A stretch of DNA of 64,000 nucleotides from Squalus acanthias. Taxonomy: Eukaryota. Below the pieces are notes generated by a model, which did not search any database, was not told the DNA's origin, and was given only the letters and a program-made list of their open reading frames with translations. A program made the translations under genes and the position numbers. The stretch spans positions 72,852,001 through 72,916,000 of the forward strand of contig CM059432.1 in assembly GCA_030390025.1 (NCBI GenBank), read 5' to 3'. Shown in pieces: positions 16,393 to 49,536 of this stretch (positions within the stretch are counted from its first letter, which is position 1; every line of letters starts with the position of its first letter).

Positions 16393-17400
16393 CAAGTTCA
16401 GCGATTTTTTTTTTTTATTCGTTCATGGGATGTGGGCTTCACTGGGGAGGCCAGCATTTATTGCCCTTGATAAGGTGGTGGTGAGCCGCCTTCTTGAACC
16501 GCTGTAGTCCATGTGGTGAAAGTACTCCCATAGTGCTGTTAGGGAAGGAGTTCCAGGATTTTGATCCAGCAACGATGAAGGAACGGCGATATACTTCCAA
16601 GTCAGGATAGTGTGTGACTTGGCGGGGAACTTGGAGCTGATGGTGTTCCCTAGCGCCTGCTGCCCTTGTCCTTCTAGATGGAAGAGGTCACGGGTTTGGG
16701 AGATGCTGCCGAAGAAGCCTTGGCGAGTTGCTGTAGTGCATCTTGTAGATGATACACACTGCAGCCACGGTACGCCGGTGGTGGAGGGAGTGAATGTTTA
16801 AGGTGCTGGATGGGGTGCCAATCAAGCGGGCTGCTTTGTCTTGGATGGTGTCGATCTTCTTGAGTGTTGTTGGAGCTGCACTCATCCAGGCAAGTGGAGA
16901 GTGTTCCATCACACTCCTGACTTGTGCCTTGTAGATGGTGGAAAGGCTTTGGGGAGTCAGGAGGTGAGACACTCGCCGCAGAGTACCCAGCCTCTGACCT
17001 GCTCTTGTTGCCACAGTATTTATGTGGCTGGTCCAGTTAAGTTTCTGGTCAATGGTGACCCCCAGGATATTGATGGTGGGGGATTCGGCGATGGTAATGC
17101 CGTTGAATGTCAAGGGACGGTGGTTAGACACTCGCTTGTTGGCGATTGTCATTGCTTGGCACTTGTGTGGCGCAAATGTTACCTGCCACTTATAAGCCCA
17201 AGCCTGAACGTCGTCCAGGTCTTGCTGCATGCAGGCATGGACTGCTTCATTATCTGAGGAGTTGCGAATGGTACTGAACACTGTGCAGTCATCAGCGAAC
17301 ATCCCCACTTCTGACCTTATGATGGAGGGAAGATCATTTATGAAGCAGCTGAACATGGTTGGGCCTAGGACACTGCCCTGAGGAACTCCTGCAGCGATGT

Positions 17401-19204
17401 CATAGAGTTACACAGCACAGAAAGAGGCCCTTCGGCCCATCGTGTCCACGCCGGCCATCAAGCCCTGTCTATTCTAATCCCATTTTCCAGCACTTGGTCC
17501 GTAGCCGTGTATGCTATGGCGTTTCAAGTGCTCATCTAAATGCTTCTTGAATGTTGTGAGGGTTCCTGCCTCTACCACCCTTTCAGGCAGTGCGTTGCAG
17601 ATTCCAACCACCCTCTGGGTGAAAAAGTGTTTCCTCAAATCCCCTCTAAACCTCCTGCCCCTTACCTTGAAACTATGCCCCCTGGTTATTGACCCCTCTA
17701 CTAAGGGATAGTTCCTTTCTATCTACCCTATCTATGCCCCTCATAATTTTGTACACCTCAATCAGGTCCCCCCTCAGCCTTCTCTGTTCTAAGGAAAACA
17801 ACCCCAGCCTGTCCAGTCTCTCTTCATAGCTGAAGCGCTCCAGCCCAGGTAACATCCTGGTGAATCTCCTCTGCACCCTCTCCAATGCAATCACATCCTT
17901 CCTATAGTGTGGCGACCAGAACTGCACACAGTATTCCAGCTGTGGCCTAACTAGCGTTTTGTGCAGCTCCATCATAACCTCCCTGCTCTTATATTCTATG
18001 CCTCGGCTAATGAAGGCAAGTATCCCATATGCCTTTTTAGCCACCTTATCTACCTGTCCTGCTGCCTTCAGGGATCTATGTACATGCACACCAAGGTCCC
18101 TCTGATCCTCTGTCCTTCCTAGGGTCCTACCATTCATTGTGTATTCCCTTGCCTTGTTAGTCCTCCCAAAATGCATCACCTCACACTTTTCAGGGTTAAA
18201 TTCCATTTGCCACTGTTCTGCCCATCTAACCAACCCGTCTATATTGTCCTGTAGCCTGAGGCTTCCCTCCTCACTATTTATCACTCCACCAATTTTCGTG
18301 TCATCTGCGAACTTACTGATCATACCTCCTACATTCATATCTAAATCATTAATGTACACTACAAACAGCAAAGGACCCAGCACCGATCCCTGCGGTACAC
18401 CACTGGACACAGGCTTCCAGTCACAAAACAACCTTCGACCATCACCCTCTGCCTCCTGCCACTAAGCCAATTTTGGATCCAATGTGCCAAATTGCCCTGG
18501 ATCCCATGGACTCTTACCTTCTTGACCAGTCTCCCATGCGGGACTTTGTCAAAAGCCTTACTGAAGTCCATGTAGACTACATCAACTGCACTACCCTCAT
18601 CCACACACTTAGTCACCCCCTCGAAAAATTCAATCAAATTGGTTAGACATGATCTCCCCCTGACAAAGCCATGCTGACTATCCTTGATTAATCCTTGCCT
18701 CTCCAAGTGGAGACTAATTCTGTCCCTCAGAATTTTTTCCAATAATTTCCCTACCACTGATGTTAGGCTCACTGGCCTGTAATTCCCTGGTTTATCCCTA
18801 CTACCCTTCTTGAATAATGGTACTATGTTAGCTGTTCTCCAGTCCTCTGGCACCTCCCCTGTGGCCAGAGAGGTTCTGAAAATTTGTGTCAGAGCCCCTG
18901 CAATCTCCTCCCTTGCCTCACACAGCAGCCTGGGATATATCTCGTCTGGGCCTGGGGATTTATCCACTTTTAAGCCTGCTAAAACCGCAATACCTCCTCC
19001 CTCTCAATACTAATTTGTTCAAGTATATCACAATCCCCCTGCCTGATTTCTATGACTACATCGTCCTTCTCCATAGTGAACACAGATGCAAAATATTCAT
19101 TTAAAACCTCACCTACATCTTCCGGCTCTACACACAGATTGCCACTTTGGTCCCTAATGGGCCCTACTCTTTCCCTGGTTATCCTCTTGCCCTTAATATA
19201 CTTA
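17401..19204 (-). mobile_element. CR1 LINE, 5'-truncated, nested in LINE A
   Basis: ORFs 17673-18431 and 18359-18967 with [27 protein letters not shown] and RPQLEYCVQFWSP. Confidence 0.95.
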
Positions 19205-19933
19205 TCCTGGGCCTGTGATGATTGACCTCCAACCACCACTACCATCTTCCTTTATGCTAGGTATGACTCCAGCCAATGGAGAGTTTTCCCTCCAATTCCC
19301 ATTACTTCAGTTTTACTAGGGCTCCTTGATGCCACACTCGGTCAAATGCTGCCTTGATGTCAAAGGCAGTTACTCTCACCTCACCTCTGGAATTCAGCTC
19401 TTTTGTCCATGTTTGGACCAAGGCTGTAATGAGGTCAGGAGCTGAGTGGTCCTGGCAGAACCCAAACTTGGCATCAGTGAGCAGGTTATTGGTGAGTAAG
19501 TACTGCTTGATAGCATTGTCGATGACATCTTCCATCACTTTGCTGATGATTGAGAGCAGACTGATGGGGCGGGAAATGGCCGGATTGGATTTGTCCTGCT
19601 TTTTGTGGACAGGACATACCTGGGCAGTTTTCCACATTGTCGGATAGATGCCAGTATTATAGCTGTACTGGAACAGCTTGGCTAGAGGCGCGGCTAGTTC
19701 TGGAGCACAAGTCTTCAGCACGATAGCCTTTGCTGTCTCCAGTGCACTCAGCCATTTCTTGATATCACGCAGAGTGAATCGAATTGGCTGAAGACTGGCT
19801 TCTGTGGCCCTCAGGTGTAGGCCGATATGGATCATCCACTCGGCCTTCTGGCTAAAGATGGTTGCAAACGCTTCAGCTTTGTCTTTTGCACTCACGTGCT
19901 GGGCTCCACCATCATTGAGGATGGGGATATTCA

Positions 19934-47630: not shown

Positions 47631-48467
47631 GAGAAATACATTTTATTAATTGATTGCTGAAGATCAGCCAATATTCATGTAATGAATAGTAGTTATAAGG
47701 GAGCAAAGATTGTGAGACTTCAATATGCTAGCATGCATTACAGAATATGAGACACTTGACTTGAGTGCTGCTGAGGGACTTTGCCTCTGGGACAAGGAAC
47801 GTGATGCCATGTGATACCCTCAAAGGTAATGCTTGACTTATTTTTTATATACTTTTTCTTAGGATGGAGGCAGTATTTATTGCCCATCCCTAATTGCCCT
47901 GAGGGCATTAAAAGTCAACCACACAGTGTGGTAGACTGGGTAGGGAGGGCTACAGGCTCCTTTCCCTGAATGACATTGGTGAACTCACAACATCCGGGTT
48001 ACTTGTCCCATACCATAACCAGGCTACTGTACCTGCATTGTTCCAGGGAATATCCAGTGCTGGCCTGAATGCTAGCCAAGCCCTCCTGTAAACTGTCATG
48101 GGCTGTTTATCAGAGGAGCTGTGAATGGAGCTGAACACTGTAGAAATTGTCTGCAAACAGCCCCAGTCCTGACCATATGATGGAGGGAAAGTCATTGACA
48201 AAGCAGTTGAAGCTGGTTGGGCCAAGAACGCTGCCATGAACAACTCCTGCAGTGATGTCCTGAGGGCTGTAATGACTGGCCTCTGACAACTACATCGGGT
48301 ATGATTCCAGCCATTGTAGGGTTTTCCCTTTGACCCCATTGACTTCAGTTTTGCTCGGGCGAATGCTGCCTTAATGACAAGAGCAGCTACTCTCACCTCC
48401 TCTCTGACATTTAGCTCTTGCATCCATGTCTGGATCAAGGCTGAGATCAGGAGCTGAGTGGTTCTGA

Positions 48468-48783
48468 ATCTTTTTTTTATCACAGGCTGTTGGCTGTTTA
48501 AAGTTAAGCATGTGCCCCTACAACAAATAAAGACTGTAAATTAACAACAAAGGTTAAAGGAAACTTAACAAATTAAATTAAAATATTGTTCCTTGCGGTG
48601 ATGATGCACTTCAGTCCCTGCGGTGCCCAGCGGTCACGGAAGGCCTCAAGCGTGCCGATGGACACCGCGTGCTCCATCTCCAGGGCCACCCGGGCGCGAA
48701 TGTAGCCACGGAAGAGAGGCAGGCAGTCGGGCCGAACGACCCCCTTGACCGCCCGCTGCCTGGACCTGTTGATGGCCATCTTG
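48468..48783 (-). mobile_element. 3' end of an L1/Tx1-like LINE (ORF2 C-terminus, 3'UTR, A-tail)
   Basis: KMAINRSRQ...FRGYIRARVALEMEHA....FRDRWA resembles L1/Tx1 ORF2 C-termini. The long TSD and A-tail fit the L1 clade. Clade assignment is from memory. Confidence 0.65.
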
Positions 48784-48797
48784 AAAATAGGCCCTAA

Positions 48798-48880
48798 TGT
48801 CAGGAGTGGGATTCAAACTCCGTCTCCAGGGTAGATTGAGACCTGAACGCAGTGCCTGGGGCCCGCTCGGCCATCCTGCC
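48798..48880 (-). pseudogene. tRNA-Leu(CAG) pseudogene
   Basis: ggcaggatggccgagcgg.....ggcactgcgttCAGgtc.ca.tct.ccctggag.cg...tt.gaatcccactcctgaca follows the vertebrate tRNA-Leu-CAG sequence, with a long variable arm. Confidence 0.9.
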
Positions 48881-48942
48881 TCCCAGAGCTGTTATAAAGG
48901 CCCCAGAAACCGGCCAAGTTGCAAGGGCAGGAATCTGTCAAA

Positions 48943-49015
48943 TATTTCTGCCTGGTTTCAAACCAGGGACATTTTGCATGTTAATCACATGTGATAACCA
49001 CTACACTACAGGAAC
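48943..49015 (-). pseudogene. tRNA-Val(AAC) pseudogene
   Basis: gtt.c.gtagtgtagtggttatcac.......tAACa.gc.aaa.gtccc.ggtt.gaaacc.ggc.gaaa.a, 73 nt. Many differences are CpG-type transitions. Confidence 0.9.
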
Positions 49016-49536
49016 AGGCCCGCTGAGTGGTTCTGACTGAAACTGATCTGAGCGTTAATGAGCAGGTTATTGGTGAGCAGGATTTGTTTGATGCTACTAT
49101 GGATGACTCCTCCCATAATTTTACTGATGATTGGGAGGAGCCTTTAGAGTGGTAATTGGCCCGGTTAGATTTATCCTGTTTTTGTGAATAGGACATATGT
49201 GAACAATCTTGTTTATAGTCAAATAAATGCCAGTGTCATAGCTGTACTGAAACAATCTGGCTAGGGGAGCAGTTAGCTCTGATGCATATGTCTTCAGCAC
49301 TACAGTCAGGATGTTGTCAGGGCCTTTGGCCTTTGCAGTGTCCGGTGCATTTAACCACTCCTTAATGTCACCTGGAGTGAACTGAATTGGCTGGACACTG
49401 TTACCAATGATAGTGGGGACCTCAGGTGGATCTGAGTAAGATCTTCGACTTAGTGTTTTTTGCTGATGTCTCTTGCAAACAATGGTAGTGCCATATAACA
49501 CGATAAAGGATGTCCTCGCAGTGAACATGAGATTTA

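Follow-up and report, generated by a model that had tools for sequence, protein, structure and literature searches.

The closest described systems are the U6/L1, U6atac/L1 and 5S/L1 chimeric retrogenes; in the accessible parts of the two reports, U6 is also joined to L2, RTE and possibly CR1-like LINEs (PMC4476161; PMC6789731). The insert analyzed here resembles them as they are described there: a full-length sense Pol III RNA is joined by its U-tract to a variably 5'-truncated LINE, one target-site duplication (TSD) surrounds the product, and several LINE clades are involved. However, it carries two serial pre-tRNA heads with leader and trailer on a Tx1 element without poly(A), and the ligation chemistry given for human U6/L1 fits it poorly. 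Tripartite chimeras are represented by WEIRD-MgSINE-MGL from Magnaporthe and B2-U6-L1 from mouse, which the accessible text attributes to double template switching (PMC2104539). They likewise contain three RNAs head to tail in one TSD (14-16 bp in that paper). In the present case, by contrast, the added parts are two pre-tRNAs (the word 'tRNA' is absent from that paper's text), and, as opposed to the cases described in its accessible part, a Pol III concatemer of four parts is present in the same genome. Human tRNA/LINE-1 chimeras, known from 21 loci in the part of the preprint available, mostly contain antisense tRNA halves (bioRxiv 10.1101/2025.02.02.635956); as in those, a tRNA stands on a LINE 3' end with a TSD, but the heads are here full-length, sense and unprocessed. 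Finally, the crocodilian SINEU and the U1/U2-headed Tx1-Mar show repeated 5' small-RNA addition, attributed to template jump in the accessible part of the report (PMC4494074). Tx1 machinery, target preference and 5' addition of a small RNA are common to both systems; SINEU, as described there, forms amplified families with snRNA heads and poly(A), in contrast to a single copy with tRNA heads.

The window is the whole stretch of 64,000 nt of Squalus acanthias DNA (contig CM059432.1) that was analyzed; it comes from a vertebrate-type assembly of 3.7 Gb. On its minus strand, a 554-bp insert (48468-49021) lies between exact 15-bp direct repeats (48453-48467 and 49022-49036). Along this strand, the order is leader, Val(AAC)-like part, 62-nt spacer, Leu(CAG)-like part, 14-nt trailer with T4 and LINE; CCA is absent from both tRNA parts. 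The insert interrupts the RT-coding region of an older LINE on the same strand (left part 48100..48452, right part 49037..49400), which we take, by its motifs, to be of the CR1 group. Two paralogues of this host LINE are found within the window. The first matches left and right flanks contiguously (19260-19454 and 19441-19797), and the second also matches both (3041-2641 and 2654-2407); in each, the two flank alignments overlap by 14 nt, and the repeat motif is present once. Hence, the 15-bp repeat is a true TSD, with its 5' copy in element orientation at 49022..49036 and its 3' copy at 48453..48467. The first four bases of the latter in element sense (48467-48464) are identical to the terminal TCAG of the tail family. 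A single-copy empty site and one TSD enclosing the entire insert are as expected for a chimeric retrogene; the 15-bp TSD of the initial annotation is confirmed, and the single retroposition event proposed there is supported. Elsewhere in the window, a young CR1-type LINE copy (17427-19205) shows 96.5% identity over 1784 nt to the copy that L082 carries within its Tx1 element, and it seems to split another host-LINE copy (matches at 17250-17401 and 19260-19797). The name CR1 is an assumption of ours, based on motifs of the reference copy in L082.

Unlike full Tx1 elements, the tail keeps only the last 69 codons and stop of a Tx1-clade ORF2 (48573..48783, minus strand; stop at 48575-48573) and the 3' UTR (48468..48572, minus strand), which ends in the A-rich motif of its family (48481-48468) rather than in poly(A). 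The family is abundant (4601 first-look genome candidates, of which the best 40 were scored), and its full-length copies of ~6.9 kb align along Tx1 ORF2. The RT stretch of a long copy is 69% identical to Xenopus Tx1 ORF2 (P0015; E 2.5e-30), compared with an E value of about 1e-6 for human L1 ORF2p in a smaller library. The C-terminal 182 aa of the family are 47% identical to Tx1 ORF2; the window peptide itself reaches E 3e-9 against the Xenopus protein and 78% identity to the long family copy. By this pairwise protein similarity, the tail donor appears to belong to the Tx1 clade rather than to L1 proper, as had been suggested initially. Homology over the APE-RT length, a C-terminus in register, long TSDs and a preferred target motif are shared with the Xenopus element. 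An initial protein search returned only unnamed turtle proteins, and Pfam matched two of eight frameshifted Tx1 pieces (zf-RVT, below cut-off, and RVT_1).

Copies of the family end in an A-rich motif that is followed by TCAGC; poly(A) was found in 0 of 16 copies with a recognizable end. The A8 of the window is this A-rich motif with one G-to-A change, and the TCAG behind it overlaps the first four TSD bases. The proposed A-tail of L1 type has thus to be read as the family's own 3' end. TSDs of several family copies, as read by eye, begin with TCAGC or CAGC and overlap the element end, many other copies having no readable end or TSD; the family shows the target preference of Tx1 elements together with long TSDs. 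Downstream of at least five Tx1 copies (L015, L020, L092/L158, L101, L124), the same sequence recurs, which suggests a repeated preferred target beyond the TCAGC motif. Four full-length Tx1 copies begin with GA/CTG-rich sequence and have no tRNA head, and on these four copies the possibility that complete Tx1 elements natively start with the Val variant was rejected; the tRNA called by relaxed ARAGORN upstream of L158 is spurious.

The head, of which all parts lie on the minus strand, starts with a 6-nt 5' leader of the Val precursor (49016..49021), the same as or similar to the leader before other retrocopies of this Val variant. The C that forms the last TSD base may be a seventh leader base, since in L057 and L025, too, a C stands before this leader. 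The following decayed tRNA-Val(AAC) variant (48943..49015) is identified by Rfam (RF00005, 41.3 bits) and alignment, and is the sole gathering-level Rfam match within the window. Next comes the Val 3' trailer (48904..48942), which agrees in 35 of 38 aligned bases with the trailer of L022, a well-folding (z -3.1) and gene-like Val(TAC) locus; the match covers the first 39 nt of the spacer, and the T4 of L022 falls exactly where the similarity stops. Its TAC anticodon makes L022 a paralogue of the Val part and not its source. L022 (1501-1573, on C1439) is an isolated variant that has T6:A67, T:A pairs in the T-stem and a trailer of 41 nt; no other tRNA was found in the 20 kb examined around it (11 kb downstream, 6.5 kb upstream).

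Eighteen nucleotides separate the Val trailer from the Leu leader (48886..48903). They could belong to a long Leu leader, a third short template or extra nucleotides, and a pattern scan of the genome gave no match above control. The Leu leader (48881..48885) is common to an independent Leu-CR1 chimera, L053, and the decayed tRNA-Leu(CAG) variant (48798..48880) shares diagnostic changes with it. This part is 83% identical to intact Leu genes and is called by neither ARAGORN nor Rfam, ARAGORN reporting no tRNA anywhere in the window. The 14-nt Leu 3' trailer (48784..48797) ends in T4 (48787-48784), and LINE sequence begins at the next base, 48783. Hence, the join sits directly at a Pol III U-tail, and leader, U-tract and missing CCA corroborate the pre-tRNA origin, both as initially annotated. 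In L053, the same Leu variant with the same leader stands on a CR1 3' end through a similar T4 trailer and the same type of join, with no Val upstream. The GGGCCT before T4 resembles Tx1 just upstream of the junction; a Tx1 origin was nevertheless rejected and the motif assigned to the Leu precursor, because the similar trailer in L053 stands on CR1. The 62-nt spacer as a whole (48942-48881) contains no T run longer than 3, and the Val-Leu join has no U-tract, unlike most other joins. Its last 30 nt show borderline likeness to the sequence upstream of the L053 Leu (p 0.004-0.14 by scoring scheme, in a region chosen after inspection), which fits a longer common precursor and a microhomology-guided jump equally. 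A hidden decayed Val in L053 was rejected (Val-only alignment, p 0.13-0.55).

Among the best-scored genome candidates, both tRNAs are covered only by the window itself (one of 42 whole-insert matches and one of 43 head matches), and this also applies to the two matches of the spacer search. A second Val-Leu head, or a second copy of the same junction, was found neither in these DNA searches, which score best candidates only and could let a very diverged copy escape, nor in exact and near-exact scans with four patterns, for spacer, Leu leader and Leu trailer. Four 3-mismatch matches in one pattern scan (control 2) and three other pattern matches turned out to be SINE-like repeats or sequence without relation to the head. 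The genes from which the Val and Leu variants came are absent among the 15 T-arm, four leader and two Leu pattern matches, although collapsed tRNA arrays may hide them. No genomic Val-Leu gene pair with the 62-nt spacer was found, and the assembly may lack such a pair. Dewa is a Tx1-clade family that targets tRNA arrays. The genome contains large tandem tRNA arrays (L037-L050, on C21, C26, C460, C1989 and C3403) in which Val(CAC) is followed, ~700 nt downstream, by a Leu(CAG) in the same orientation. This order is seen in six of the eight array loci scanned, the genes having their own T runs and unrelated flanks. No array copy has the spacer or the trailer of the window, so the earlier suggestion of a read-through from a tRNA array with a Tx1 insertion is not borne out.

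Other chimeras are present in the same genome. A Val T-arm pattern gave 15 matches. Besides the window, one stands on Tx1 (L066, the same as L029), three stand directly on CR1 by BLAST (L069, L072, L073) and one has a short CR1-type end by motif only (L063). One more each precedes what we take to be a SINE-like repeat (L062) and a Ser-like tRNA (L068), and L067 precedes an unclassified LINE-like frame. For L070, no partner was found; L064, L065, L074 and L075 are gene-like, and L071 is a chance match. Beyond this set, L057 is a Val on Tx1, and L026 consists of a Val(TAC), then the Val variant, then CR1. The Val variant heads Tx1 tails that begin 329 (window), 321 (L029) and 267 nt (L057) from the reference 3' end, and CR1 fragments begin 0-25 nt after the Val head in L069, L072, L073 and L026. 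Other copies of the Val variant have a T run directly after the tRNA. The insert of L029 is flanked by a 20-bp repeat.

Further Pol III RNAs have been captured. A near-intact U6atac lies directly on a 5'-truncated CR1-type LINE (L147:1500-2570, reverse strand; C19, 17.26 Mb), one of eight U6atac genome matches. Another locus (L146; C28, 15.79 Mb), with a TATA-like upstream element and a T4 end, is probably a functional U6atac gene. In L023, L025 and L028, the order Val-U6atac-Val-5S-A-tract is enclosed by near-identical repeats of about 12 bp. Herein, U6atac and 5S are complete by Rfam (1-126/126 and 1-120/120), and the join to U6atac falls on its first base, so that the flank preceding the gene in L146 is missing. 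Four segmentally duplicated copies of this concatemer exist on C26 (L023, L024, L025, L028), one of them internally deleted; that at L025:1490-1912 (C26, about 6.29 Mb) is located inside an old repeat and has no LINE part. U6atac, 5S and tRNA genes have different promoter types. Hence, separate Pol III transcripts get joined in this genome, and the concatemer is cleaner evidence of serial joining than the window insert.

The frequency of tRNA heads was estimated from 55 Tx1 copies with an exact match to an internal Tx1 23-mer. The search for heads used Rfam on 53 of the 55 loci (with separate scans of window and L029), ARAGORN and a seven-entry local library, and five long copies were re-fetched. 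Three of the 55 (window, L029, Glu unit) are headed by a full-length tRNA in sense orientation that terminates in a T run. Two of the three heads were known beforehand and the anchor was taken from the window, so that 2/54 is the fairer figure; it is a lower bound, since Rfam missed the decayed head of L029. Relaxed ARAGORN on the 55 junction regions gave 19 calls, most of them off-junction or on the opposite strand, and these are noise. The third head belongs to three tRNA-Glu(TTC)-Tx1 units in tandem on C6 (about 97.86 Mb; L144:8945-10000, L143:440-6020). They share one junction, 1180 nt from the reference 3' end, have between them a minisatellite of 33-34 bp in which the Tx1 target motif occurs, and lie upstream of an intact-looking Glu gene. 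The junction pattern has two exact matches, both at this C6 locus, and no TSD is readable, which leaves the case ambiguous. The Glu heads still score as tRNAs and, judged from this, could be transcribed. Window, L029, L057 and Glu unit represent independent events with different LINE junctions.

The insert is an old, inactive pseudogene. Both tRNA parts carry a C56-to-T change in the T-loop, both B-boxes are mutated, and the parts fold no better than shuffles (z -0.11 and -0.32). Of 205 sites compared in the Tx1 coding part, 15 deviate from the majority of the family, seven of them of CpG type (median of other copies 6.8%, n=68). In organism A, one contig (X1 record 6, 48753-49022) spans the Tx1 join with three differences, and two others (X1 record 7, X5 record 24) span the 5' boundary with two, run X1 possibly being the assembly's own sample. 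In organism B, a contig (X6 record 31, 48754-49070; 16 differences in 317 letters, ~95% identity) bridges Leu, spacer, Val and the 5' boundary into the flank; it extends 30 letters into Tx1, one under the bridging rule. Hence, the insertion predates the A/B split. No listed contig of organism C (run X10) spans the insert, and contigs cannot show absence. The substitution pattern typical of L022 is present in X1, X5 and X10, so the L022 Val locus is also old.

The insert was formed by a single target-primed reverse transcription (TPRT) event, with its parts in sense, head to tail, and joined at or near Pol III 3' ends; Val- and Leu-type heads recur on differing junctions and different LINE clades, in searches biased toward these Val and Leu variants. 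It is very probably a one-off chimeric retrogene, whichever chemistry applied. With somewhat more doubt, it is taken as a tripartite chimeric retrogene made from separate transcripts by serial template jumping of the Tx1 RT, and this is the preferred reading. What we infer is that the RT jumped and that the two tRNAs came from separate transcripts, the latter being favored by L022, L053 and the U6atac concatemer; template switching, named as an option in the initial annotation, gains support. The Tx1 ORF2 protein nicked the old LINE where a TCAG allows pairing with the 3' end of the element itself, and TPRT started there, as TSD, 3' overlap and family behavior show. After ~320 nt, the RT would leave the Tx1 RNA, jump to an unprocessed pre-tRNA-Leu at its oligo-U 3' end and copy it to its leader. 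A further jump to an unprocessed pre-tRNA-Val, near its terminator, would be followed by copying to the leader and by completion of the integration. The Val and Leu sources may have had stem mismatches, and such precursors might be poorly processed and linger with leader and U-tail. Template jumping by LINE ORF2p gives concatemers in vitro, according to the accessible part of that report (PMC10830420).

A dicistronic or read-through Val-Leu precursor, i.e., one Pol III transcript for the whole head with a single switch at its U-tail, is improbable, though the most serious rival; it would stem from a gene pair that is now lost or missing in the assembly, or from an older, still transcribed Val-Leu chimera. 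The dicistronic pre-tRNA had been the initial interpretation, and its observation of a spacer without T4 stands; the Val-Leu join has no U-tract. The TTTG after Val is, moreover, also present in the organism B orthologue (run X6, no difference at 48939), the likeness to L053 extends into the spacer, at a borderline level, and Val(CAC)-then-Leu(CAG) order does exist in six of the eight tRNA array loci scanned. However, the array pairs are ~700 nt apart, have CAC anticodons, own T runs and unrelated flanks; other copies of the Val variant have their T run right behind the tRNA; the terminator of L022 lies exactly where the shared sequence ends; and the genome holds concatemers of RNAs that cannot be co-transcribed. 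The spacer T4 that the initial annotation had named as contradicting the dicistronic model is present in L022, the sole relative available; as L022 is a TAC paralogue, this weakens the model without refuting it. A still less probable form of it involves at least two captures of a Val-spacer-Leu precursor in a vertebrate germ line, one of the complete precursor by Tx1 and one, with 5' truncation, by CR1 in L053; if true, the insert would be a fossil of polycistronic tRNA transcription and a dimeric proto-SINE. The oligo-U ends of pre-tRNAs carry a 3'-OH, which speaks against RtcB-type ligation of a pre-tRNA 3' end to cleaved Tx1 RNA before retrotransposition, as shown for human U6/L1, and this route is decidedly unlikely here. 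In the accessible part of the source, RtcB requires a 2',3'-cyclic phosphate together with a 5'-OH, and a 5' triphosphate blocks the reaction (PMC6789731), so native 5' ends suit it poorly. In the Val-Leu and Val-U6atac-Val-5S joins, the RNAs on the downstream side begin with such ends and would be poor substrates if triphosphorylated; in addition, a 5'-headless RNA of 320 nt would be unable to make ORF2 in cis. On the other side, the Tx1 fragment could have had a 5'-OH, and the join exactly at T4 without microhomology resembles the U6/L1 products described in that part of the source (PMC6789731).

An origin at the DNA level, in which Tx1 was inserted downstream of a tRNA gene or pair and read-through of the unit later led to its retroposition, or in which insertions accumulated stepwise at one site, is very improbable. 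Three Glu-Tx1 units in tandem beside an intact-looking Glu gene show that tRNA-Tx1 units exist in a tRNA locus; their junction pattern is, however, confined to the C6 locus, while the Leu-Tx1 join has no TSD remnant, one TSD surrounds the whole insert, and no donor locus was found. Least credible is a two-tRNA-headed SINE family mobilized by Tx1, as had also been considered initially. The layout of head and LINE tail is SINE2-like, and Tx1 mobilizes the crocodilian SINEU in the accessible part of that report (PMC4494074). Nevertheless, neither the head nor the junction was found twice among the best candidates scored and in the pattern scans, junctions vary among Val-headed copies, both B-boxes are mutated, and Pol III would terminate at the T4 of the head-tail join without reaching the tail, so that this explanation is largely refuted.

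Bipartite and tripartite chimeras are already known; sense full-length pre-tRNA heads on 3/55 Tx1 copies were not found in print. In a literature search that covered few subscription papers, no report was found of a Pol III concatemer with four parts, or of Tx1 or CR1 elements headed by full-length pre-tRNAs in tandem; supplements on human chimeras could hold full-length cases. The accessible parts of PMC13343379 and PMC7245038 describe no such chimeras in this group. The insert is a marker of the repeated capture, by Tx1 and CR1-type LINEs in this genome, of Pol III transcripts that were full-length, unprocessed and joined by their U-tails, in some cases serially, with a tally of three of 55 Tx1 copies (2/54 without the query), at least five CR1 cases and one four-part concatemer. 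Joins in which U6atac, 5S and pre-tRNA begin at their native 5' ends are difficult to reconcile with RtcB ligation and point to end-to-end template jumping in vivo; hence, they bear on the question of switch versus ligation. Units of tRNA head and LINE tail are the postulated first step of SINE birth, and they are preserved here as unamplified singletons with readable junctions, leaders and trailers. Such chimeras can leave the raw material from which SINE repeats arise.
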